This document shows, piece by piece, positions 12,996 to 57,193 of a DNA stretch of 64,000 nt. A program made the translations under genes and the position numbers. The stretch comes from a virus (lineage: Duplodnaviria > Heunggongvirae > Uroviricota > Caudoviricetes). Each line of letters begins with the position of its first letter. Within the stretch, counting starts at the first letter, position 1. Under the pieces are notes generated by a model that ran no database searches, was not told the DNA's origin, and saw only the letters and a list, made by a program, of their open reading frames with translations. The stretch lies in IMG/VR virus record IMGVR_UViG_3300029953_000013; one strand, given 5' to 3'.

Positions 12996-13007
12996 GCTGG
13001 CTCCTAG

Positions 13008-13259
13008 CTAGGTGTAGTTGAGTTGAAGCAGCGGCATACCCATGGCATCCCGCAACCGATTCCTGACTTCCACGGATTCCGGCTTACTCATGTTCTTGGG
13101 GCGATGCAGAACATAGTCCCAATCCTTCGTCTTGCCCTGAATGGCACGCTGGCGATCAGCAACAGACCGCTAGCCGATATAGATTTCCATCTCATCTTCC
13201 AGGATGTGAGTCACCCCGAAGATCACAACCGGTGCGGGACGTTCAATCCCTTTTGGCAT
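13008..13259 (-). pseudogene. 83-codon gene with an in-frame TAG at codon 30 (pseudogene, sequencing error or amber read-through)
   Basis: canonical GGAGGCTTTATGCCA start; MPKGIERPAPVVIFGVTHILEDEMEIYIG-TAG-RSVADRQRAIQGK...LQLNYT; the frame stays open exactly to the next gene's RBS. Confidence 0.35.
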
Positions 13260-13402
13260 AAAGCCTCCTTGTGCTGAATTCAACACTGGTGATCTACCAC
13301 CAGCGCTCAATTCGGAACAAAGGTTGGGAGCCTAAATAAGCGCTCCCATGATACACGTTGCCTGGACGCACTATACTGCCTACACGGTGCTTGTGCATTA
13401 TC

Positions 13403-13432
13403 GCGGAGTTATCCAGCCTCCCGCTCTTTTTT
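13403..13432 (+). terminator. rho-independent terminator-like hairpin with a T-tract (plus strand)
   Basis: GCGGAGttatccagcCTCCCGC followed by TCTTTTTTCG. Confidence 0.4.
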
Positions 13433-13520
13433 CGTCAGTGGTTTGCGCCCACTGTTGCCAGATACAAGTGTTCGACCGCTGGCACACGGTCTGGATGGTA
13501 GCTACCAAAGCGCCGCGATA

Positions 13521-13537
13521 TGTGACGATCACACACA
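13521..13537. promoter_or_regulatory. palindromic operator-like site TGTGACGATCACACACA
   Basis: intergenic; same core as the copies at 1298, 14245 and 17965. Confidence 0.45.
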
Positions 13538-13562
13538 GCGGCTCTTTAGCGTAGCTATCAGG

Positions 13563-13802
13563 CTAGAAGTCACCCACCACGATCTCAGCGCGGGTTTCAC
13601 GCTGCATCTTCATGTGGTCGATGTTGGCAACGGTGATATGCCACTTATCCTTCACGTTCTGGCGAATCTCCTTCATCTTCCGGTCGATGCGCCGTTGACG
13701 TTCCTTGGGGTTGTGAATCGGGGCGCACAGGGTTGCGAGATCGACCGGCGACAGCATCGGTGAAGACCAGTTGGCAAAGAAGTTGGAAAGCGGGTTGGAC
13801 AT
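13563..13802 (-). CDS. hypothetical protein
   Basis: start refined to MSNPLSNFF. Confidence 0.45.
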   Translation of the reverse strand: MSNPLSNFFANWSSPMLSPVDLATLCAPIHNPKERQRRIDRKMKEIRQNVKDKWHITVANIDHMKMQRETRAEIVVGDF

Positions 13803-13839
13803 GAAAAACCTCATGATAATGCCCAAAGGGCAGGGTTAA

Positions 13840-14118
13840 CTAATCGACCAGCAAACGATCAACATCTTCAGCGGTGAGCGTGTCAAACAAGCCCCAACGA
13901 TCCATGGTTGCCAATGCAGCGGCAGCACGATCAATCAGCGCCTTGTGGTTATGCTCGACAAGCGCCAACGCTTCAGCTTTCCGAAGCATTGCAGCTACTT
14001 CAGCTTCACGCCGGTAATAGAGCATGATCGGTGTGGGAAGCAGGGCAGGGGCAGGATTCAGAACAAGCGGCGGCAGCACCACTTTTTCCCGCGCCGGGAG
14101 TGAAGGCAAGGTGAACAT
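13840..14118 (-). CDS. hypothetical protein
   Basis: TGAGATG stop/start overlap with the upstream peptide gene. Confidence 0.45.
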   Translation of the reverse strand: MFTLPSLPAREKVVLPPLVLNPAPALLPTPIMLYYRREAEVAAMLRKAEALALVEHNHKALIDRAAAALATMDRWGLFDTLTAEDVDRLLVD

Positions 14119-14119
14119 C

Positions 14120-14209
14120 TCAGAACCCTTCCACCAGCACCAGCCTGACCACACGAAGGGCAGACAGCCCCATAACCAGATACAGGAAACCATTCAGCCA
14201 CGGATTCAT
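14120..14209 (-). CDS. 29-aa hydrophobic peptide
   Basis: RBS AAAGGAGAGTGCCATG; MNPWLNGFLYLVMGLSALRVVRLVLVEGF. Confidence 0.35.
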   Translation of the reverse strand: MNPWLNGFLYLVMGLSALRVVRLVLVEGF

Positions 14210-14244
14210 GGCACTCTCCTTTTGATGGCATAAAGCCATGTTGA

Positions 14245-14257
14245 TGTGACGATCACA
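14245..14257. promoter_or_regulatory. palindromic operator-like site TGTGACGATCACA
   Basis: about 35 nt upstream of the 14209 start, at the edge of the 1 kb gene-free region. Confidence 0.45.
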
Positions 14258-15133
14258 GACTGCGCTTAGGTAAACCATGGGCAGAAATACAGCGGCATGG
14301 TTTACCAAAGGACAATCAAACGCCCCAGGGATTTACAGCCCCAGGGCGTTCAATCGCAAATGATACTTCGTAAATAGCCCATAGGGTTTATCGGTGATCC
14401 TTACACCCCATATTTTGGAAGGCATCTTGCATAGTGACGGAGTGCTAGTCCATCAGGAAATGACCACGCACCACATGAGAATCCCTTTCATGATCCCAAG
14501 GCATACGCTCACTTCACCTTCTATGCTTTTCCGTTCCATGGTCCCTAAGTTAAATCCGGCTCTCCCGGCTTCGATCCAGGTCCAGTTAGGTGGTATTGCG
14601 ACTATAGCTCACGCCATATCGTTTTTTGGCAAGGCAACGTATCTTACTAAGCCCATCATTTACCGCGACCACCAGCACATAAAGCTTCACCTACCGCCGA
14701 ATGGACGCGCCAACCTACCAGACCATGAACGTGAGATGACATCCCACTAAATCCATGGTGCTACCGCTAGGCGTCACGCAGCACATGAAAAATCGTGCCC
14801 CATGATGGCAGTCTCCAACAAACCAGACTACCGCATTAGATAAACCTAACGGTATGCATTGAGAACTCCCAAGCTATAGACGCATAGCGGATATGTAACC
14901 ATGAGGCTAACGTGGACCACCAGCACCCAAGGAATGAACCCGGATGAAGGTAAAGCACGCCCCAGCGTATGCTAGGCATACCATATGCGGATATTAACTA
15001 AGTGATCGTTTCCCGGCATCCCATGAGATAGCCGAACATATGACCCCGACTTAGCAGGTAAGGCAAAGCCCCAGCACCATATGGCGCAACATACGCTAAA
15101 CAAGGAAACCTTTTGTTACCCTTGGTTCCTTGA

Positions 15134-15170
15134 TTAACTAGCAAATCCTTATTTGCATCATGCTAGTTAA
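15134..15170. repeat. perfect 10-bp inverted repeat TTAACTAGCA...TGCTAGTTAA
   Basis: read directly from the sequence, downstream of the 15229-15888 gene. Confidence 0.5.
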
Positions 15171-15175
15171 TGAAG

Positions 15176-15219
15176 GAACCCGGAACCCTGACAAGGTTAA
15201 GTATCAGGGTTCCGGGTTC
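15176..15219. repeat. perfect 16-bp inverted repeat GAACCCGGAACCCTGA...TCAGGGTTCCGGGTTC
   Basis: arms separated by 12 nt; contains the CCGGAACC iteron; no U-tract on either side. Confidence 0.55.
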
Positions 15220-15228
15220 AAGCTATCG

Positions 15229-15888
15229 TTACTTTCCGGTTTTCTTGACGCCCGCTAGGGTGTAATTCAGCTTGTAACCAAGCTTTTTCAAGGTTTCCTT
15301 GGCTTTTTCAACCTCGCCTAAGAGATTGTTATAAGCAAGGGTAACGTCCACGGGCAATTGAAGCTTTTCAGCCACGATTCCAGCCGCTTCCTTCTTGCTT
15401 TCATCCTTGCGCCATTCGGAAACGTAAGCTTGTGCCGTGCGCTTGGAAACCTTGTTTTCTTCTCTGTCAAGGAACGCCACAAGCTTGTTACCTGCAATGG
15501 CGCTTTCTTTCATGGCTTCAATACCTTTGGTTTCCGTGGCTTCAATGATGATACTGGAAACCTTGACGCCATACCTTGCGATAATGGCGGAAAGATTACC
15601 CGTCATGTTAATTCCCTGCCCTTTGCAGGAATCAAGGAACCCATAAACGGTAGGCTTCAAAGCGGAAACCTTATCATTGAAAGCTTTTGAGGCTAGTTCA
15701 ATGGCTTGGAAACCCTCATTGATGACGTTGAAACCCTGGAAAGCTTTGAAACCCGGAACCGTGGGAACCGTAGGAAGCATTGCCGGAACCGGGTTAATTT
15801 CAACCTTGTTTTCAGCCGCTTTTCCCTTGGTTTCCTTGACTTCCTTGGAACCGGAAAGGGTAACGATAGCGTTATTAGAGTTAGGCAT
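15229..15888 (-). CDS. lysine-rich hypothetical protein flanked by GGAACC iterons
   Basis: RBS GGGGGGCTTTATGCCT; 219 aa. Confidence 0.5.
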   Translation of the reverse strand: MPNSNNAIVTLSGSKEVKETKGKAAENKVEINPVPAMLPTVPTVPGFKAFQGFNVINEGFQAIELASKAFNDKVSALKPTVYGFLDSCKGQGINMTGNLSAIIARYGVKVSSIIIEATETKGIEAMKESAIAGNKLVAFLDREENKVSKRTAQAYVSEWRKDESKKEAAGIVAEKLQLPVDVTLAYNNLLGEVEKAKETLKKLGYKLNYTLAGVKKTGK

Positions 15889-16646
15889 AAAGCCCCCCAT
15901 TGGGAAAGAGTGAATTGAGAATGGTTCTCAAGAGAACCGGTTTAGGTTAACCTCGATCAACCTTGATTAGAGAATAGCCTATCCTTGGAACCCGTCAAGC
16001 GGAAATGTGAAAGAAATTTAGATTCTTTGAAACCCTGACAATTGCCAAGATTCAGGAACCGAAACCCGGAACCGTGGAAAGAGAAAATAGAACCGTGCAC
16101 GCATAGCATGGAACATGCCAGAATCGTTAATATGAACGAATGAGAATGTATCTCTTGAACATGTAGAAAACCGGCATCTTTTGACGTAATTCGAGAAAAC
16201 CGGAAATAGTCCAGGTTAAGCGAAAGGGTTCCTTGTCATGGTTCCGTATCATCGGAACCGTTCAACCTTTCCTAGACCCTGCTAGACCCCATAGAATCGA
16301 TTTGATTTAGTTGAGATTCGTTGAGACTGTGCCGGTTTAATACAAATTACCTTGGTTTTTATACAATTTCCCTTGAAAAAGCTTACATTTGACGAAAAAA
16401 GATGAAATGTAGCGAAATTGCGATAATCACAATTGACAAGACAAAAAATGTATTGTCGGAAATGAAGCATAATAAACTTATAAAAGAAAAAGCATTGTTA
16501 AACTAAAAAGCATTGGTTACAATGCGAGTAAATGAGATGAAGTCTCAAGATTGAGATTGGAGAAAAAGAAATGTTGACAGGAAGGAAATAGTATTGTAGC
16601 GGCTGGGAATGAGAGTGTGTCGCAAAAAGAGGGTAGGATAGCAGAA

Positions 16647-16865
16647 ATGACCATGCACCTGTCAATAGGCAAGATATGCCTAGCCGTTCATTTCATCGGA
16701 AGTGAACTAACCAGGGCAGGGGTTTTCCTGAGACTCATTCTCAAACCCAGGACCATAGGGGTGGTCCAAATCCTCACGGTATCCCAAAATCCCATTCCAC
16801 CTACCTTCCACGAATTTTTTGAGCAACTTTTTATCCGTAGAATCGACTTTGCACTTCCTCGATAG
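16647..16865 (+). CDS. possible small hydrophobic protein on the plus strand
   Basis: ATG preceded by GAGGGTAGG; followed by the bidirectional terminator at 16899. Confidence 0.25.
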   Translation: MTMHLSIGKICLAVHFIGSELTRAGVFLRLILKPRTIGVVQILTVSQNPIPPTFHEFFEQLFIRRIDFALPR

Positions 16866-16898
16866 GCACCTACCCCTTAGCGCGTGAATCCTATACAG

Positions 16899-16921
16899 AA
16901 AAAGCCCACAACGGGCTTTTG
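16899..16921. terminator. bidirectional rho-independent terminator
   Basis: AAAAAGCCCacaacGGGCTTTTT. Confidence 0.55.
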
Positions 16922-17101
16922 TATTATTTCCATGTACTGACTATGTTCCAAGGGATCTCACTGTATTGCTTATAGCGCCAGTACACCCGTCTGTACTCCC
17001 GCATAGGGCAGGATGTATTCCCGCACCCCTTAGCAGATACAAGAACGCCCCCAGTTAAGAGGGCGGGTGGGGGAAGTGTATTGGGTCATGGACCCATACA
17101 G

Positions 17102-17899
17102 TTAAGAAATCACTCCTGTTCTCCGGGGGCTATGAGAGAACAGCTTGGACCCAGGACGGGCTTTCTTGCGCTTCTTCGGGGCGCAGGACGGGCAGTGGTC
17201 GCTTTGGGCGGTAATCAGACCGGTGGACTTGATCCAGTGCTTCTCATCCCCACAGACGCAGGTTACGATCCACATCTTACCGGCACCAGAGCCTTGCTTT
17301 GCTTCCCTAGCCTTTGCAGCCCTGATGATGATCCAGTGCCCTATACGCTTGCCTGAGAGGTCTTTAGCGGCTTCCTGCTGGCGCTTGAGCTTCATCTTTG
17401 CAGCCTTGATCTGATCTCTTAGCGTCTGCTTCTTCTCTTTCTCTCGTTTGGCTATCATGATGGCATCTTCTTTACCACAACCACAGTCTGTCTCGCCGCC
17501 TCGGTGCATCTCCCTTGACTGAAGGGTCCGTAGGGTAGTGGTTGACTCTTTCTCGCAACGCTCACAGAAGACCTTGACCTTTTGTGTGCCGAAGCTCCAT
17601 ACAAGCTCTTGTTGGATTACCACGGCTCCAAATCGTTTACCTACCAGGGAAGGCTTCTCATCGGGTAAGGGCGGTTTGACTATTATAAGATCCCTTGGGT
17701 CGATAAGCTTCAATGTTGGATCACAAACAGGACATGCCGTGATGGATTCATTATTCGCTTGCCGCCTTGATAAATTCATTGTGTTGCCACACGAACAAAC
17801 AGCCGCATACTTGCCGGTGATAGGTGACATACCTGCAATGCTTAATCGCCCCCTTATCAGGGGAAAGGTATTCACCGGGGCGGGGGTTTGCGTAGTCAT
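17102..17899 (-). CDS. Cys-rich protein with multiple CxxC zinc fingers
   Basis: at least 6 CxxC pairs; 265 aa. Confidence 0.5.
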   Translation of the reverse strand: MTTQTPAPVNTFPLIRGRLSIAGMSPITGKYAAVCSCGNTMNLSRRQANNESITACPVCDPTLKLIDPRDLIIVKPPLPDEKPSLVGKRFGAVVIQQELVWSFGTQKVKVFCERCEKESTTTLRTLQSREMHRGGETDCGCGKEDAIMIAKREKEKKQTLRDQIKAAKMKLKRQQEAAKDLSGKRIGHWIIIRAAKAREAKQGSGAGKMWIVTCVCGDEKHWIKSTGLITAQSDHCPSCAPKKRKKARPGSKLFSHSPRRTGVIS

Positions 17900-17964: not shown

Positions 17965-17977
17965 TGTGATCGTCACA
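17965..17977. promoter_or_regulatory. palindromic operator-like site TGTGATCGTCACA
   Basis: about 65 nt upstream of the 17899 start. Confidence 0.45.
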
Positions 17978-33545: not shown

Positions 33546-33695
33546 TTTCTTGTCATCCTTGGCACGAAGCGTGAAGGTTTCACGATCAATGCTGATGATG
33601 TTCTCAACGGGAACCCCGTCAAGCAGTTCGGTGAATTGGGCATCCGCCGTTTCGTCGGGCACTTCGATGATGATGGTGATTGCTTTCATTACTGC
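33546..33695 (-). CDS. 49-aa acidic peptide
   Basis: RBS CCAAGGAGCAGTAATG. Confidence 0.35.
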
Positions 33696-34102
33696 TCCTT
33701 GGTTGATTGAAGATAGTTGAGGTAATTGCTGTCTCTCAGGAATGCCGCCATTTCGGTGTCTTCACCCTTCATGTGGACAGAAAGCCAATCGAGAACGACT
33801 TGAAGAAGATCCACTGTCAGGTTGTCGCTTGTACGCAGAGCAACGAGGCGCTTCATGATTTCAAAGTGAATAGCCCGGTGCCGTTCATAACCGGGATACT
33901 CGGCTTCACGCATGTATTTCTCTTCGGTTTCAAAGTGCTTCTTGCCGAAGTTGATGAATAGGTCCAGGAGAAGGCTTGAAGCGACCTTGTTTTGTAGCTT
34001 TTCGGCTTCAAGAAGATTGTCCAGATGCCCAAGCCACTCCAAATGCTGGTGATCAATGATGCTTATGTGGGTGAACCATTCGGGTTGCCATGTGATGGTC
34101 AT
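33689..34102 (-). CDS. hemerythrin-like metal-binding protein
   Basis: H..HxxxE ... H...E pattern (HFETEEKYM, YERHRAIHFEIMKRL); RBS GAGGAACAAATG. Confidence 0.5.
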   Translation of the reverse strand: MTITWQPEWFTHISIIDHQHLEWLGHLDNLLEAEKLQNKVASSLLLDLFINFGKKHFETEEKYMREAEYPGYERHRAIHFEIMKRLVALRTSDNLTVDLLQVVLDWLSVHMKGEDTEMAAFLRDSNYLNYLQSTKEQ

Positions 34103-34118
34103 TTGTTCCTCTAAGAGA

Positions 34119-34205
34119 TGGTGTGGGTAACAGGACTCGAACCTGCACGGGCTTTCGCCCACAGCGACCTCAACGCTGCGCGTCTACCAATTCCGCCATA
34201 CCCAC
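34119..34205 (-). tRNA. tRNA-Leu (GAG), type II
   Basis: acceptor GTGGGTA/TACCCAC, anticodon loop TTGAGGT, variable arm TGGGCGAAAGCCCGT, CCA encoded. Confidence 0.8.
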
Positions 34206-34669: not shown

Positions 34670-35107
34670 TCATACCACCAGAGAATGTTTGATTTCGCCC
34701 CGGAGATGCATAAGAAGCATTCCAAGCACGTTGGTCCCTACCCCGTCTACCTTGCCCCAGTAACGATCACCCCAATTGTTACCTTCAACCAGATAGGCAT
34801 TCTCGGTTGCTAAGAGCCATGCACGAAGGTCAAGGTTCTGATTAAACTTCGCCACTAGAACTCGGTACATGATGTCATCCTTGATCTGCTCCCAGTCCTC
34901 CCGCAAGCTCACAGACCTACCCATGCGCTTAGACTCGCTTGCATCAAGGTCCACGAAGAGAACGGCATCGTGAGGGTTCTTACATTTTTGGCTCTGGAAA
35001 GCAGCCTCGGCATTCTTGAATGTGTGCCCAAATACTGTGATGGGGCACGAGAAGAAATTACTCAGGAAGCGGTATTTCCCTGTGAATTCAAGGATTTCTG
35101 TGGTCAT
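34670..35107 (-). CDS. NADAR (YbiA-like) domain protein
   Basis: GKYRFLSNFFSCP...NAEAAFQSQK; RBS GGAGGAAACAATG. Confidence 0.6.
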   Translation of the reverse strand: MTTEILEFTGKYRFLSNFFSCPITVFGHTFKNAEAAFQSQKCKNPHDAVLFVDLDASESKRMGRSVSLREDWEQIKDDIMYRVLVAKFNQNLDLRAWLLATENAYLVEGNNWGDRYWGKVDGVGTNVLGMLLMHLRGEIKHSLVV

Positions 35108-35119
35108 TGTTTCCTCCAA

Positions 35120-35194
35120 TGATAGAGGGGGTGGGTTTTGCAGCCCACATCTACGTTCCATTCGGGAACTGCTCTCCTATTGAGCTACCCCTTC
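35120..35194 (-). tRNA. degenerate tRNA-like element (pseudo-tRNA?)
   Basis: GCTC-AATAGGA-GAGC D-arm and GTTCC/GGAAC stem are present, but the T-loop and acceptor pairing are non-canonical. Confidence 0.2.
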
Positions 35195-35199
35195 TTGTG

Positions 35200-36678
35200 C
35201 TACAGGTTCGACAGCAACCGCTCCCGAATCTCACTCAGCTTCTCTTCCCGAAGCAGCTTGCCATCCTGGAACACCGGCTGAAGGAGATCAGCGGCAATGT
35301 AGTCGGTCGAAGTGAAGCCATCAAAGACCTTCAGTTCCGCGCCGATCTTTAGGACCGCTACCCTGCCCTTCTGACTCTTCTTGACGCCGTTGTCAGTCAC
35401 CGGGTTCTTGTAGATGGCGATCTCTTCCCCGTTGATGGTCACAGCCGTGGACTTCAGGGCGAAGCCGAAGGTATCCCTGGTCGTGTACTGGTAGGTGAAG
35501 GAACCGATGCCGTAGACCATGTTGGTGCTGGCGAAGCCCTTATTCATGAGCCGCACGCTGATCTCACCGCACCGGTCATAGGTGATCGCATCGCCGTAGA
35601 TGCAGCCAATGTGCGAGTCCAGCACCTTGAAGCCCTTCTCGTTCACCGTGCCGCCGAAGATGTCCCACAGAAGCTCGATGACGCCCTTCTTGGCGCGGGG
35701 ATCGGTCGCATCGTCATCACCGCAGATGATCTTGACCGGATCGCCGGAATCGGGGCGGATGACGATCTTGCCATCACGAGCAAGAATCTCAGGCTTGAGG
35801 CTGGGAATGATGACGGAGAGGGTATTCCAAAGATCCCAGGTGTCGGAAACGATGGACAGGAAGCCGGAAGGGTAGACTTCGGTAATCAAGCGCCGGTAGG
35901 TTTCGTACTCGTTCTCAGCACCACCAGCACACATGACGGAATGCTCCGTTGCGGGAATGCTGGTGCCCACCATCTCCCTGGTAACGTCCGCGCCATAGTA
36001 GCGCTCCAGGTAGCAGATGCCGGGAATGGTGTCAGTGCCGAAGAAGGACAGAAGGTGCCCTGCATCGCTCTTGGCGGCGGATTCCAGGCTTGTCATGCCG
36101 CGCATACTGAAGTCGTGTCCCTGGAAAGGAACGAACCCAAGATCCCCACCGGTCAGCTTCGCGTAGGCATTCAGCAGCTTACGGTAGTTCCAGGCAGTCG
36201 TTGCGCTGGTGCTGGGAAGCCACAGTTCGCAGGACATGAGGGTTTCCAGGTAGTTGGTCAGCCAGAAGAACCGGGGATCGGTATTCTCGATGGTGAGCAT
36301 GGGCACACGCACCGGCACGATGGTTCCCTCAGGAACGGCTTTGATCAGGATGGGCAGGAACCCAAGCTCCCAAAGATCGGTGATGTGCGAAGTGTCGGGA
36401 TTCGTCACACCCAGCGTGTGAGTAATCACACGGCTATACTCAGCCAGGACTTCCATCAACGGGCGGCTGAAGAAATTCTCATTGAAGTAATCCATCAAGT
36501 ATTCCTTGATGAAGCCCTGGAAGCCAAATGCAACCACGCTCTGGATGTGCCGGATGCGACTGGTGCGTGGGGTCCAGGTGGAGTAGACAACCTCGGTTCC
36601 GACAGGGTATTGCTGCCGATGAGAACATTTATAAAAATCACACAGGAGTGTGGCTGGATAGGTGGTATGATTGACCAT
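35200..36678 (-). CDS. nadV: nicotinamide phosphoribosyltransferase (NadV/NAMPT family)
   Basis: 492 aa, the typical size of phage NadV; call rests on length, gene context and overall family resemblance, no single diagnostic motif verified; RBS GGAGATATTATG. Confidence 0.7.
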   Translation of the reverse strand: MVNHTTYPATLLCDFYKCSHRQQYPVGTEVVYSTWTPRTSRIRHIQSVVAFGFQGFIKEYLMDYFNENFFSRPLMEVLAEYSRVITHTLGVTNPDTSHITDLWELGFLPILIKAVPEGTIVPVRVPMLTIENTDPRFFWLTNYLETLMSCELWLPSTSATTAWNYRKLLNAYAKLTGGDLGFVPFQGHDFSMRGMTSLESAAKSDAGHLLSFFGTDTIPGICYLERYYGADVTREMVGTSIPATEHSVMCAGGAENEYETYRRLITEVYPSGFLSIVSDTWDLWNTLSVIIPSLKPEILARDGKIVIRPDSGDPVKIICGDDDATDPRAKKGVIELLWDIFGGTVNEKGFKVLDSHIGCIYGDAITYDRCGEISVRLMNKGFASTNMVYGIGSFTYQYTTRDTFGFALKSTAVTINGEEIAIYKNPVTDNGVKKSQKGRVAVLKIGAELKVFDGFTSTDYIAADLLQPVFQDGKLLREEKLSEIRERLLSNL

Positions 36679-36702: not shown

Positions 36703-37521
36703 ATGAATATCGGTAAGATTGAATACTTACCATCGGTTCCTGGTGTGTATCTAATCCGAAACACACGTAATGGAAAGGTGTATGTCGGTCAGAGCCAGAT
36801 AGGTTTATACCAACGCTGCTATGGACACTTGGCGAAGCTCCAGGGAGGCGGCGACAATCGCCATCTTCAAGCCGATTGGGACAAGTGCGAAGCTGATTTT
36901 GTCTTTGAAGTCCTTGTGACCTGTGAGCCAGAAGAATGTTCTATGTATGAAACTCACTGCATTGCTCAATATCACTCTTACCACCGGAAGTTTGGCTACA
37001 ACATCGACATAAGAACAAGCGGCGCAGGTAGTAAAAGCCAAGAAACTATCGACAAGATTCAGTCAGATGCTTCAAAGGCTGCGCGTAGTAAGGCAATGAC
37101 AGGTCGTGTGCGTATCACGGATGGAGTGGAAAACCGATCCATTACGCCAGGGCAAGCTGTGCCGGACGGCTGGTGGGAAGGGCTTACCATTCGTAACAAG
37201 CGCAAAACCAATCCAGCAAACAAGGGTTTAACTACGGGTTACGACCCTTTGACGGGTGAAACTATGCAGATCGCTATTGATGATCCTCGTTACCTGAATG
37301 GAGAAATCAAGCACATTGCAAATAAGCGGTGGGAAGGTGTTATAACCAAACGGCAAGAAACAGAGAACAATCGCCTTGGACCTAAAATGGAAACATTGAA
37401 GGGATGCGTTTGGATCAACAACGGTGTAGTCAACAAACGCATCCCTTCCGGTCCAATCCCTAATGGATGGAATGCCGGTAGGCTTCCTAGAAAGCCAAAC
37501 CGAAAAAAGGAAGCCGCCTAA
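36703..37521 (+). CDS. GIY-YIG homing endonuclease (free-standing)
   Basis: GVYLIRNTRNGKVYVGQS...YQRCYGHL; RBS AAGGAGAAGGGTTGAATG; sits between nadV and prs on the opposite strand. Confidence 0.7.
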   Translation: MNIGKIEYLPSVPGVYLIRNTRNGKVYVGQSQIGLYQRCYGHLAKLQGGGDNRHLQADWDKCEADFVFEVLVTCEPEECSMYETHCIAQYHSYHRKFGYNIDIRTSGAGSKSQETIDKIQSDASKAARSKAMTGRVRITDGVENRSITPGQAVPDGWWEGLTIRNKRKTNPANKGLTTGYDPLTGETMQIAIDDPRYLNGEIKHIANKRWEGVITKRQETENNRLGPKMETLKGCVWINNGVVNKRIPSGPIPNGWNAGRLPRKPNRKKEAA

Positions 37522-38405
37522 CCTTCCTGAATAAGAGGAAGGATGTGGACCCGGTTGCTAATTTCGGAAGGTAACTTGTCAACATAAGCCTGGGTAAGAA
37601 TGCTGTTGGTTGTGACAAGGTGATCGATCTTGTTGTATCGGAAGTCTTCCGGCACGCTTGCCCAGTTCGGGTTATCCGGCGTCATGGGAACGCCGAAGAG
37701 CTTGCCATCGAAGATCGACCGCTCACAGTGCGACACGACAAGCACGATTTGCTTGGGATCGAACTTCCTAAGCTCTTCCGAAGCCGCCACGAAAGTTCCA
37801 CCGTAGGAACAAAGATCGTCCACGATCACCACGGTTTTCCCGCGAATGCATTCAGCATTGGAGATGTCGTAACCGGTGATCTTCCCGGTTTCAAAGTCCC
37901 GCTTCTTGAACCCGGCGATCTGAGGGTAGGGCTTGTACATCTCCATGCTTCCGTAGCGCTTCTGTGCCCCGGCATCGGGGAACATGACCACTACCTCTTC
38001 GCCCTCTTCCAGCCCACCAAAGGGCGCTTCGTTGAAGCTGCGGAATGGGTAGTAGGAGCTTGCGTTCTCGCCCAGGTAGGCAAGGGTCAACTCGCTGTGA
38101 GGATCACACACGTAGATGTGCTCAAAGCCCAAGTCCTTGATGAACTCAGCCACGAAACGGAGGGAGCATTGGGAGCCGCCCCTGGAATCCCTGTCCATGC
38201 GCCCGTAGGGCATGTAGAGGATGCGAAGGCTCACATGCTTGTTATGAAGGTGCCGCTTCACCATCATCAGGTGGAAAAGATCCTCATCGCTTTCCCACTT
38301 CAGCACCAACCCATCGGGGTAGAACGGAACGTGGCTCATGTTCAATTCCCCGTTGGGGAACATCGTGCGCGGGATGGGATTGCCGGTTGCATCATAGAGC
38401 ATCAT
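37518..38405 (-). CDS. prs: ribose-phosphate pyrophosphokinase (PRPP synthetase)
   Basis: PYGRMDRD (RQDR-like) and VVIVDDLCSYGGTF PRPP-binding loop. Confidence 0.65.
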   Translation of the reverse strand: MMLYDATGNPIPRTMFPNGELNMSHVPFYPDGLVLKWESDEDLFHLMMVKRHLHNKHVSLRILYMPYGRMDRDSRGGSQCSLRFVAEFIKDLGFEHIYVCDPHSELTLAYLGENASSYYPFRSFNEAPFGGLEEGEEVVVMFPDAGAQKRYGSMEMYKPYPQIAGFKKRDFETGKITGYDISNAECIRGKTVVIVDDLCSYGGTFVAASEELRKFDPKQIVLVVSHCERSIFDGKLFGVPMTPDNPNWASVPEDFRYNKIDHLVTTNSILTQAYVDKLPSEISNRVHILPLIQEG

Positions 38406-43551: not shown

Positions 43552-43870
43552 TGGTGGATCTGGCGAGAGTCGAACTCGCGTCCAAGAAGGTGAACCCACA
43601 AGAGTTTTATCAGCATCTTAGCCTCTGAATCGGGAGGCACCGCATGTCAAGGTGCTTGGTTTTCCTAGTTTACTCGCCAGCTAGGAGGCGCATCATTTAG
43701 GCAGCTACAGCAAAAGCTCCTGCGCGGCGGTAACGACGGAAAGCAACAACATTGGACTTCTTGTTGGTGTTGGCAGTTTTGTTTTAGTTGATTTGATGAC
43801 CCAGCCCTTCAACTACCTGGGGATGCCTCTTTGCGAATCAGCACGAACCTGTCGAAACCTTTACAGACCC
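43552..43870 (-). ncRNA. ssrA: tmRNA (ssrA)
   Basis: 5' GGGTCTGTAAAGGTTTCGAC... pairs with the 3' ...GGACGCGAGTTCGACTCTCGCCAGATCCACCA (close to the E. coli tmRNA 3' end); internal tag ORF ends ...GCT GTA GCT GCC TAA (AVAA-stop); candidate resume codon GCC after an in-frame UAA. Confidence 0.7.
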
Positions 43871-54592: not shown

Positions 54593-54820
54593 TTCGGCTC
54601 CTGTCGCGTTAATGTACTTAAATTCTTATTGCAGTTATTTAAGTACTTAATTAAGAATTATAATCTATGTACTGTTGTTGTTATAAATATATTGTACTTG
54701 AAAGGTAGGTGTACATGTACTAGCCAAACCCCCTCTTCCCCCTATACCACCACTCCGCACAACACCCATTTTGTGAAAAAGTTTCGATTGGTGGTATTGA
54801 CAAGTGAAAGGCATTAATGT
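54593..54820. promoter_or_regulatory. divergent AT-rich control region between the minus-strand arm and the plus-strand head module
   Basis: palindromes AATTCTTA...TAAGAATT and GTACATGTAC; one GGTGGTATTGACA motif on the plus strand at 54789-54800. Confidence 0.45.
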
Positions 54821-55102: not shown

Positions 55103-55628
55103 ACTGAAGACGCTTGGCGAAGCGTATGGGTCCAAGGACATAAAGTTCGATGACCCGAAAGCTGCAAAGCGGCAACGCATGTCAAAAGCCTTCCTTGATG
55201 GCAGAGCCAAGCAGCACGAGGAAAAGCGAATGACGCGCAACCCACCAAAGACAGCCAAAGAGCGCACGCAGGTTGATCGTGCGGATATTTTCATGGAAGC
55301 AGAAGTCAATGCCGATCCCGTACAGACAGTGCGTGCGCGGTTGACAAAGATGTGGATCATGGAATGCAAGGTGAATGACGATCTGTATTTGGCAGAGGTT
55401 ATTGACAACTCTGCTCTATCAGCGTCCAACAAGCGCCTCTTGGAGCTTTCCCAGGGGTTGAAGGCTCTCCCGAGCCAGACAACCGGCGAGAACAAGGGCA
55501 CCCAGCGGAGCACCGCAGAACTCATTGAGGATGCTATTAAGGTCGAGCGGAAAGAATCCGTTGAAGCTCTTGAGCTTGGTAAGAGCATGATTGACAAGGC
55601 TGATACTGCTTTCGGTGAAGGTTCTTGA
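55038..55628 (+). CDS. putative terminase small subunit (Lys/Arg-rich)
   Basis: sits immediately upstream of the large terminase; overlaps the previous ORF in another frame. Confidence 0.35.
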   Translation: MSETKPVQQNLPPITVGTARDELKTLGEAYGSKDIKFDDPKAAKRQRMSKAFLDGRAKQHEEKRMTRNPPKTAKERTQVDRADIFMEAEVNADPVQTVRARLTKMWIMECKVNDDLYLAEVIDNSALSASNKRLLELSQGLKALPSQTTGENKGTQRSTAELIEDAIKVERKESVEALELGKSMIDKADTAFGEGS

Positions 55629-57193
55629 TGGCTGCCCTTCCCGCTAACAGTGCGCTTAGACTAAAGGAAGACCCTTTTCTAGCGCTTGATGTTCTGATGC
55701 AGGGAATCAGTCTTCCTCCGCATCAGCAATACCAGTTGCGCGAAATGTGGCGTGCAACATATATCTATAGCTCTTCGGGACGTTCTACTGGCAAAACAGT
55801 ATTTACAGCCATCTTTCTTCTTCTGTGGTGTGCTACTCATCCAGGGACCAAGGCTCTTTGCTTGGGGTTGAAGTTCACTACACCCAAACTCCTATTAGAA
55901 GCAGCAGAAGGCTTCCTGAAGAAATTTCCAGAAATCGCCAAATGCATCCAACTAACCGCATCAAATGACTTCATCCTCCATGGTTCCGACCGCTGGACCA
56001 TGAAGTTCAAAAATGGATCGGTTATCACAGCCCTGCCCTCTGACATCAACAAAAAGGGTGCGCGTGTTCGTGGTTTCCGTTGCTCAATTCTTGTCATTGA
56101 CGAAATTGCCGCTATTCCAAGCGAGATTGTGCGGCAGGTATTCATGCCCTGTTGTTCAATCACCGATGATGAGGGATACCGGAAGGTAATCAAGCTCACT
56201 ACCGGTGGCTTCCGTCCGTCCGCTGCTTGGGATGATTGCCGTGAACATTACCGGCAAGTTAGGGCTGGCAATACTGATTACGCCTTCTTCAACTTCACCT
56301 ATCTCGATGTTCCGCCCGAATTCAATTTCATTATTGATAGGGAAGCCATCGAAAATATGATTGCCAATTCTTCCCCGGATGAAGTAGCGCGGGAAGTAAA
56401 CGGAGCGTGGAGCGAGGCGGGTGGTAATTATTACTCAGGCGGGATGCTTGAGCGTAATCGGCTTGCCGCCATCAACAACGAAATCTATCCCGAGACTACC
56501 GGCGAACGTGGCGCGGTTTACGTCATTGGGATTGACCCTGCTGCGCGGGGAACCGATCATACCGCAATGGCAGTCCTCAAGCGACTGGCACCCCGTAGAT
56601 GGGCTGTAGTTGAGAGCGTTTCTCTCAATTTCAGAAAAGCCTCCATGGAAGAGAACGCCAAACTCTTGATGGAATACATTGAGCGTTACGACCCTGAATA
56701 CATTGGGCTTGACCGCAATGGTGGTGAGCAGCTTATTCAGGAAATGAAGATTTACTTTAAAGACCGTCCTGATAACTGCCCAATCAACATGGATGCAGAA
56801 TCATGGGAAAGAGGGCGCAGAATTTGTCGCCAGTTCGTCCCAACGGGCACCGGCAAGGATAACAACACCAGACTCAATGCGCGGCTCCTGAGGGCACTGG
56901 ACGGCAACGGCACACCTGAATTGCTGCTCCCTGGAAGCACTCCTGAGGATTCCGATTTCGAGCGGTTGGACTCCATCGACAAATTGCAAGTCCAGCTTTT
57001 GAGCATCCAAGCAACACCAATGGAAGCCCAAGCTGGTTTGTTCAAATTCTCTAGCACTATCAAAAAGGACCGATATTCGGCACTCCTGTACGCCTTTAAC
57101 GCCGCTGAAGAGCTTGTGGAAGGTGAAGAGGACTTTTACGGCAATGCCAACGGGGCAGAGGAAGAACAATCCTGGGTAGCCGGAAGGTTGTAA
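55625..57193 (+). CDS. terL: terminase large subunit
   Basis: Walker A SSGRSTGKT, Walker B ILVIDEIAAIP; 522 aa. Confidence 0.8.
   Translation: MMAALPANSALRLKEDPFLALDVLMQGISLPPHQQYQLREMWRATYIYSSSGRSTGKTVFTAIFLLLWCATHPGTKALCLGLKFTTPKLLLEAAEGFLKKFPEIAKCIQLTASNDFILHGSDRWTMKFKNGSVITALPSDINKKGARVRGFRCSILVIDEIAAIPSEIVRQVFMPCCSITDDEGYRKVIKLTTGGFRPSAAWDDCREHYRQVRAGNTDYAFFNFTYLDVPPEFNFIIDREAIENMIANSSPDEVAREVNGAWSEAGGNYYSGGMLERNRLAAINNEIYPETTGERGAVYVIGIDPAARGTDHTAMAVLKRLAPRRWAVVESVSLNFRKASMEENAKLLMEYIERYDPEYIGLDRNGGEQLIQEMKIYFKDRPDNCPINMDAESWERGRRICRQFVPTGTGKDNNTRLNARLLRALDGNGTPELLLPGSTPEDSDFERLDSIDKLQVQLLSIQATPMEAQAGLFKFSSTIKKDRYSALLYAFNAAEELVEGEEDFYGNANGAEEEQSWVAGRL

Follow-up and report, generated by a model that had tools for sequence, protein, structure and literature searches.

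A locus of 2.9 kb was analyzed in a window of 64,000 nucleotides (nt) from a large and novel phage of peat and bog (Caudoviricetes, IMG/VR record IMGVR_UViG_3300029953_000013), where ~2.1 kb of non-coding DNA flanks a single gene for an orphan basic protein of 219 amino acids (aa). The locus looks more like a gene-control region than like a replication origin, and it does not appear to be primarily an origin. It was tentatively explained as a terminator-insulated, probably Fur-controlled transcription unit for the orphan protein, with hairpins for RNA processing or stabilization and a structured spacer of ~0.8 kb. An initial annotation had read the region as a candidate origin or, alternatively, as a transcription control locus; the alternative fits better, with a terminator, promoter-like sites, four Fur-like palindromes, and terminal hairpins placed around one gene (Table 1). 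As it stands, the locus is a well-documented cis-regulatory region with a putative function. Near-identical contigs from peat and bog metagenomes (99.95% identity) extended the reachable sequence to 83 kb and implied a genome size of at least ~140 kb. All positions of the phage are those of the 64-kb window.

Fur-box-like palindromes at the locus and in unrelated phages

The palindrome TGAGA-N5-TCTC was found four times within 15916-16743 and once elsewhere in the 64 kb, where 0.67 occurrences were expected. In the 15-bp form TGAGA-N5-TCTCA, the four copies (O1 to O4) were restricted to the locus and occurred nowhere else in the 83 kb. When TGAGAATNATTCTCA was searched in the 83 kb with up to two mismatches, only O1 and O4 were recovered. 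O1 also overlaps an alternative hairpin, GGTTCTC/GAGAACC (15922-15939). Known Fur-regulon sites of E. faecalis include TGAGAATGATTCTCA and TGAGAACGATTCTCA (PMC6056675), and the Xanthomonas Fur consensus is AATGAgAATcATTctCATT, for which accepted sites score between 14 and 17 of 19 positions (PMC1790865). The palindromes resemble Fur boxes of these types, including the 7-1-7 form TGAnAATnATTnTCA, in that O1 and O4 match the 7-1-7 repeat TGAnAAT-N-ATTnTCA at 14 of 15 positions and all four fall within the accepted Xanthomonas range. In contrast to such boxes, O2 and O3 are degenerate (12 of 15), and the placement of the palindromes relative to the predicted promoters is only partly classical. 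A Fur-family gene was not found among the phage open reading frames (ORFs) scanned.

Similar boxes were found in other phages through a motif scan of IMG/VR with TGAGANNCATTCTCAA, which matched at least 120 contigs. Earlier scans of IMG/VR with single 15- and 19-nt motifs had returned single matches at chance level, except for the locus L081, which led to the identification of box clusters. Fifteen unrelated loci, with GC contents from 34% to 59%, carry clusters of two to four boxes of the consensus tTGAGAATGATTCTCAtt. These included L081 (2117-2301), L103 (2141-2184), L131 (8929 and 9540), L150 (8076-8168), and L208 (5782-5825), as well as L137/L205/L125, L099, L093, L101, L106, L126, L164, and L182. 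The clusters are located 130-420 nt upstream of the small terminase gene (terS) in L081, L103, L131, and L150, often in non-coding DNA, and near the large terminase gene (terL) or a terminase gene in L208, L099, and L137/L205, while the terminase families beside them differ from one another. A box shared by such different phages would be best explained as the site of a conserved host factor, and its recurrence in unrelated phages makes the orphan 219-aa protein an unlikely binder. A literature search gave no paper that describes Fur boxes next to terminase genes or links iron sensing to phage development. Separately, a protein of phrog_2554 recurs near the clusters in L101 and L106.

The orphan gene, its repeats and its hairpins

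The stretches 14210-15228 and 15901-17101 are non-coding in every frame and genetic code. A codon model was trained on 55 called genes of the same phage, where real genes score +0.2 to +0.55 bits per codon in frame, and in 14200-15200 as well as 15900-17100 every one of the six frames scored below zero. The ORF list for 14260-15228 comprised only one plus-strand ORF of 118 aa and three of 43-48 aa. The initial annotation had described this part as coding-poor, a description borne out by the six-frame stops and the codon model and extended here to 15901-17101; no protein hidden under another start or code emerged from the same analyses. An alternative genetic code or stop reassignment was ruled out by the presence of all three stops in all six frames, and a recently decayed pseudogene by the lack of a positive codon score in any frame. 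Plus-strand ORFs of 72 aa and 86/118 aa placed by gene callers were rejected as spurious for their negative scores. A tRNA search of the locus was negative, and no Rfam 15 model reached its gathering score or gave a credible match at E<=10 in 13800-17400. A tRNA, a transfer-messenger RNA (tmRNA), an intron, or any other known RNA was therefore rejected. A transposon or miniature inverted-repeat transposable element with terminal inverted repeats was also rejected, as alignments of the 3' flank with the upstream region were equally weak in direct and inverted orientation (32-34, compared to 21 +/- 3 when shuffled). Paralogues of the non-coding parts were not found elsewhere in the 83 kb.

The 219-aa gene itself is genuine, with a score of 0.455 bits per codon in frame compared to a phage mean of 0.33. 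Its product has an isoelectric point of 9.4 and contains 12.8% Lys, in agreement with the lysine-rich basic protein annotated initially. The GC content is 47% in the gene (compared to 52%) and 41-47% in the unit (compared to 52% in the genome), and the GC content at third codon positions is 0.52 compared to 0.64 +/- 0.08. The protein had no match in Pfam, PHROGs, NCBIfam, PADLOC, PDB, 5.8 G clustered proteins, or 1.8 G representatives, and its predicted structure had an unusably low pLDDT of 34 (45 for the C-terminal half). A stretch resembling a helix-turn-helix, NKVSKRTAQAYVSEWRK, was spotted by eye and discarded, since no profile supports it. The predicted layout is that of a stand-alone gene, with a terminator upstream, a promoter-like site of its own, and hairpins at the 3' side. 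The terminator, AAAAGCCCACAACGGGCTTTT, has a G+C-rich stem and a U-tract, with A and T runs flanking the stem on both sides, and it confirms the bidirectional terminator described earlier.

Repeats of two kinds were found within and around the gene. The word GGAACC matched 74 times in the window (36 +/- 6 expected), and 15 of these matches lie within 15124-16259, an enrichment of ~13-fold at the locus. Six copies are located at 15.9-16.3 kb and five within the gene. They occur in both orientations without a shared extended flank, their cores are irregularly spaced 7-26 bp apart, and only part of them fit CCGGAACC or GGAACCG. A repeat search of the locus revealed only dispersed families of 11-20 nt with spacings of 177-573 bp, and a tandem, evenly spaced unit of 17-22 bp was not found. 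Hence, of the iterons reported initially, the enrichment and the six copies at 15.9-16.3 kb stood and the count within the gene rose from three to five, while the lack of a tandem unit and of regular spacing makes "iteron" too strong a term.

The true repeat is the 11-mer AACCCGGAACC, which has four exact copies, all in the locus: one in each arm of the first hairpin after the gene (HP1), one in the gene (15750-15760), and one upstream (16063-16073). The latter two both belong to a partial duplication of the 5' end of the gene (15728-15804 / 16027-16137; alignment score 44, compared to 23 +/- 3.2 in shuffles), which accounts for part of the upstream repeat set. The copy within the gene, together with the GGAACC words there, encodes a proline-rich linker, PVPAMLPTVPTVPGF. 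Both the 11-mer and the protein are restricted to this phage, whereas unrelated phages share the Fur-like box; for this reason, AACCCGGAACC (probe form GAACCCGGAACC) would be more likely than the box to be the target of the 219-aa protein.

Since the gene is on the minus strand, the inverted repeats at lower coordinates lie 3' of it. HP1 has perfect arms of 16 nt (15176-15191/15204-15219), and the arms of HP2 (15134-15143/15161-15170) extend to 20 nt (15124-15143/15161-15180) at 95% match. Both lack a U-tract, and HP3 has a partial U-run only. The two inverted repeats of the initial annotation were thus recovered, with longer arms for HP2; the lack of a U-tract had also been noted there. Sense (minus-strand) RNA of 15095-15232 folds into three hairpins at -59 kcal/mol, with a z-score of -8.4. 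HP1, HP2, and the inverted repeat at 14258-14317 (HP5) are the three longest or strongest local inverted repeats of the window. At the far end of the spacer core (nc1), two of the 13 base pairs of HP4 are G-U pairs that form on minus-strand RNA alone, and the two hairpins of 14255-14355 (z -6.4) consequently differ in fold energy between the minus strand (-49.4 kcal/mol) and the plus strand (-40.1 kcal/mol).

Several words accumulate in or near nc1. The only three CATATG sites of the window (14982, 15037, and 15078) lie within less than 100 bp at its gene-proximal end, where the density of CATG also reaches the window maximum (13 per kb, compared to 5.8 +/- 2.6). Nineteen copies of GCTGGTGG, the Chi octamer of E. 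coli type, were counted in the window (2.8 expected), of which 14 are co-oriented with transcription. Four minus-strand copies, two of which lie in non-coding DNA, cluster within 1.6 kb (13297-14924) at the left border of the locus.

Upstream of the gene, the GC content drops to 28-30% at 16.3-16.6 kb, the lowest value of the window and of the 83 kb, in keeping with the AT-rich block of the initial annotation. The AT-rich tract is ~40 bp from the 16227-16259 triple and 0.3-0.7 kb from the gene. The rightward promoter-like site in this region implies a non-coding RNA of ~395 nt, which is without coding potential.

The proposed unit and its alternatives

In the proposed unit, the upstream operon would end at the 16900-16920 terminator, followed by ~1 kb of AT- and repeat-rich non-coding DNA, the 219-aa gene, three hairpins, nc1, two hairpins, TGTGATCGTCACA, and the next operon. 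Host Fur, or another widely conserved factor of like specificity, would bind O1 to O4. O1 in the leader and O2 upstream would gate the leftward promoter-like site of the gene, O3 at the start point and O4 inside the transcript would gate the rightward one, and the unit would respond to iron status. The 219-aa protein may additionally act on its own 11-mer sites at both gene ends, as a form of autoregulation. The long U-less hairpins would be 3' stabilizers or RNase III-type processing signals on the sense RNA, and their processing may release a hairpin-capped non-coding RNA or spacer of ~0.8 kb ahead of the next operon.

Comparable arrangements are known among phage morons that are iron-regulated by a host metal regulator, such as stx1 under Fur and the corynephage tox gene under DtxR. 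As in these, the locus has one gene with a promoter-like site and terminators to itself, its GC content is lower than that of the neighbours, and it is preceded by operator-like palindromes of a host iron regulator type. It differs from them in its orphan protein, its phage-typical codon usage, its four boxes spread over 830 bp, and its ~2 kb of non-coding DNA. Similarly, phage T7 carries RNase III processing hairpins between its early genes, typically with internal loops. The hairpins of the locus are also located between cistrons on the sense strand, with 16-20 bp and no U-tracts, while their stems are perfect and without internal loops, and their cleavage is only putative. The locus was tentatively assigned to the stand-alone phage genes controlled by a host regulator.

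Several observations weigh against such a unit. Only two of the four boxes, O1 and O4, are strong. The scores of 14-15 of 19 for all four were obtained against the Xanthomonas consensus, which may not be that of the host, and comparisons of terL and Prs gave no host assignment. O1 lies at approximately +33 to +49 of TTGACG-16-TATTCT, downstream of the putative start and off the -10 and -35 elements, and matches to the promoter consensus were found at the chance rate (five, with 5.0 expected). The ~395-nt rightward RNA has no excess structure (z -0.6), and local fold z-scores of about -4 also occur at other intergenic spots of the window. The codon usage of the 219-aa gene is typical of the phage, and the gene is therefore not a recent import. 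Searches of INPHARED, IMG/VR, PLSDB, and GTDB for similar DNA revealed no relative of the locus, and the 219-aa, 265-aa, and 253-aa proteins matched only themselves, all cluster members being identical.

Another explanation, compatible with the proposed unit though unlikely, is that the hairpin-capped 14355-15100 is the gene of a new structured minus-strand non-coding RNA. The absence of coding signal, the fold z-score of -4.6 on the sense strand compared to -1.9 on the antisense strand, the sense-specific G-U pairs of the 14318-14351 hairpin, and end-cap hairpins that rank among the strongest of the window would be accommodated by it. So would the ~0.9 kb of non-coding DNA with normal GC content, which is unusual for a tightly packed phage genome. 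However, the fold z-score was based on 20 shuffles, 200-nt windows within nc1 reached only -1 to -4, and nc1 has no promoter-like site of its own. The known phage RNAs GOLLD and ROOL (Rfam) resemble nc1 in size range (~0.6-0.8 kb), phage setting, and non-coding nature, but nc1 matched neither model nor any other Rfam family even at E<=10, and no homologue or paralogue of it was found.

A replication origin was considered less probable still. It would use GGAACC and AACCCGGAACC as initiator sites, the 219-aa protein as initiator, and the 28%-GC tract as unwinding element, as in the lambda ori or the P4 ori/crr. Origins of the lambda type and of iteron plasmids are characterized by iterons in or next to the initiator gene, an AT-rich unwinding element, and DnaA or IHF sites. 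The repeats within and beside the basic protein gene are reminiscent of these, as is the nearby tract, which is the most AT-rich of the 83 kb and shows a weak helical phasing of its A/T tracts. Short direct repeats spaced 10 bp apart were also found at 16272-16327. In addition, R-loop origins such as those of T4 can be primed from promoters that lie beside AT-rich DNA. Unlike such origins, the locus contains no tandem or phased units and no regular spacing, its repeats are partly explained by the partial duplication, and its AT-rich tract is 0.3-0.7 kb from the gene. A DnaA box TTATCCACA with at most one mismatch was not found in 14-17 kb, the 219-aa protein has no homology to Rep, O, or any initiator family, no replication genes are located within +/-10 kb of the locus, and no similar plasmid or phage DNA was found. 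The cumulative GC skew, proposed as a check in the initial annotation, flattened at 15-23 kb without an extremum or turning point at the locus and had its minimum near 63 kb, although the skew test is weak in phages and covered 83 kb, with the whole genome at ~140 kb or more. Moreover, the second most AT-rich tract (54593-54820, minimum 34% GC), which contains overlapping palindromes at 54635-54664, sits at the divergent junction of the leftward and rightward arms (54.6-54.8 kb) and is a candidate for an alternative main control region or origin. These tests weaken the origin reading, none of them decisively, and the origin proposed initially gained nothing from the DnaA box, initiator homology, tandem iteron, skew, similarity, or neighbour analyses.

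It appeared improbable that the region is a mostly functionless spacer, that is, an isolated gene in decayed or duplicated DNA whose repeats are relics of duplication combined with a local word bias. The partial duplication and the words GGAACC, GGTTTCC, CCTTGG, and AAGCTT, which pervade the gene and its flanks in both orientations, would be expected under such decay, and three of the four single-nucleotide polymorphism positions found among the contigs in 5.5 kb fall in 16103-16432. However, residual coding signal is absent from all frames, perfect hairpins of 16-20 bp and four exact 11-mers would not be expected to outlast neutral decay, and the palindromes, which other phages also carry, match an operator type already known.

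Least likely of all is a pac-like packaging recognition site, with the repeats and bent AT-rich DNA as the platform and the 219-aa protein as a very divergent small terminase (TerS). The P1 pac site is defined by short hexamer repeats in and around terS, and the SPP1 pac and lambda cosB sites are comparable regions; as in such regions and at the terS-side box clusters, the locus combines several short repeats with bent AT-rich DNA, and the gene of a basic protein of ~220 aa directly follows. The Fur-like box clusters upstream of terS or near terL and terminase genes in other phages, as well as the failure to recognize a small terminase upstream of terL in this phage, would also agree with it. 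These similarities are outweighed by the position of terL (55625-57193) 40 kb away on the opposite strand, the lack of a TerS family match (PHROG, Pfam), a BLASTP E-value of 0.8 and an hhalign probability of 0.1% between the 219-aa protein and the cluster-adjacent TerS, and the diversity of TerS families beside the boxes, which implies that the box is not in itself a TerS site. The contig ends of independent assemblies (L002-L007) are dispersed over 6 kb (13167, 14548, 14821, 15042, 16101, 16362, 17343, and 19103) and share no common coordinate. This scatter over 13.1-19.1 kb without stacking means that the locus is not a physical genome end, and instead of a fixed terminus it suggests a region that is hard to assemble, for instance because of a coverage dip or microdiversity.

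Feature coordinates, genome context and implications

Table 1. Features of the locus and its borders, in window coordinates (HP, hairpin; O, palindrome of the TGAGA-N5-TCTCA type)
Feature	Position	Strand	Remarks
Phage-wide palindrome TGTGATCGTCACA	14245-14257	-	36 nt upstream of the first start codon of the next operon (29-aa ORF, 14209)
Adjacent hairpin pair closing nc1	14258-14351	-	HP4 14318-14351 (13 bp), HP5 14258-14317
nc1 spacer core	14355-15100	-	No coding potential; sense strand more stably folded than shuffled sequence; two GCTGGTGG; all three CATATG of the window
Three successive hairpins right after the stop of the 219-aa gene	15101-15219	-	HP1 15176-15219, HP2 15124-15180, HP3 15101-15124
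219-aa basic orphan protein gene	15229-15888	-	Alternative start at 15900 gives 223 aa
O1, TGAGAATGGTTCTCA	15916-15930		14/15; leader of the 219-aa gene, 15-27 nt upstream of the start codon
Promoter-like TTGACG-16-TATTCT	15971-15998	-	For the 219-aa gene; consensus match
Segment paralogous to 15728-15804 (5' coding part of the gene)	16027-16137		Holds the AACCCGGAACC copy 16063-16073
O2	16141-16155		12/15; 15/19 to the Xanthomonas consensus
AT-rich tract	16211-16680		Minimum 28% GC; A/T tracts at 9.5-10-bp periodicity
GGTTCC-N7-GGTTCC-N8-GGAACC triple	16227-16259		Includes the 7-6-7 inverted repeat GGTTCCG-TATCAT-CGGAACC
Promoter-like TTGTTA-17-TACAAT	16495-16523	+	Points right to the 16900 terminator
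O3	16533-16547		12/15; ~+3 to +17 of the rightward promoter-like site
O4, TGAGACTCATTCTCA	16729-16743		14/15 to TGAGAATNATTCTCA; 14/19 to the Xanthomonas consensus
Canonical bidirectional intrinsic terminator AAAAGCCC-ACAAC-GGGCTTTT	16900-16920		Ends the leftward operon upstream as well as any rightward RNA; z -2.5
G+C-rich hairpin	17046-17065	-	Terminator-like site directly after the stop of the 265-aa Zn-ribbon/HNH-like gene (17102-17899)

The locus is located within one long leftward arm, which according to gene calls and near-identical contigs extends from ~54.6 kb to past the left end of the window, while a rightward structural arm begins at ~54.8 kb. The 265-aa neighbour (17102-17899, minus strand) contains several CxxC zinc-ribbon motifs and partially matched an HNH-endonuclease PHROG. 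Its codon score is the lowest of the called genes (0.008 bits per codon), and the gene may therefore be foreign or mobile. The window also encodes 11 tRNAs, a tmRNA with the tag ANTNKKSNVVAFRRYRRAGAFAVAA (43552-43870), a class II ribonucleotide reductase, a T4-type RNA ligase, a deoxynucleoside monophosphate kinase, NAMPT (35200-36678), and Prs, the PRPP synthetase (37518-38405). Additionally, a NADAR-domain protein (34670-35161) and a protein with an iron-binding hemerythrin domain (33689-34162) are encoded.

The 13-mer palindrome TGTGATCGTCACA was found in five exact copies, with ~0 expected: 1298-1310, 1633-1645, 13521-13533, and 14245-14257 on the minus strand and 17965-17977 on the plus strand. 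Further copies have one or two mismatches, and the occurrences are mostly 20-70 nt upstream of start codons, suggesting a candidate phage-wide operator or RNA hairpin. The word TATGCCATCAAA(GG) occurs on the minus strand just upstream of several start codons (14221, 29434, and 50075, also 46973 and 59399) and may be a shared translation-initiation region. A second coding-poor stretch, 13000-13560, demonstrated strong minus-strand folding (z -3.8 to -4.4 in 200-nt windows). It includes one copy of TGTGATCGTCACA, a Chi octamer, and a 29-aa ORF (13170-13259) whose Shine-Dalgarno sequence is strong.

An origin or packaging site at the locus would provide an anchor point for studies of replication or packaging in a phage lineage without characterized relatives. 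A broader proposal, also quite unlikely on present evidence, is that Fur-box arrays represent a recurrent and undescribed device of unrelated phages that reads or titrates the host iron regulator at main control regions and near packaging genes, combined in this phage with the pair of 11-mer and orphan protein and a new structured, hairpin-capped RNA of ~0.8 kb. Should Fur control hold for the 219-aa gene, the phage would couple part of its programme to the iron status of its host, and a general but unstudied link between iron sensing and phage development would be indicated by the terminase-side clusters of many uncultured phages.

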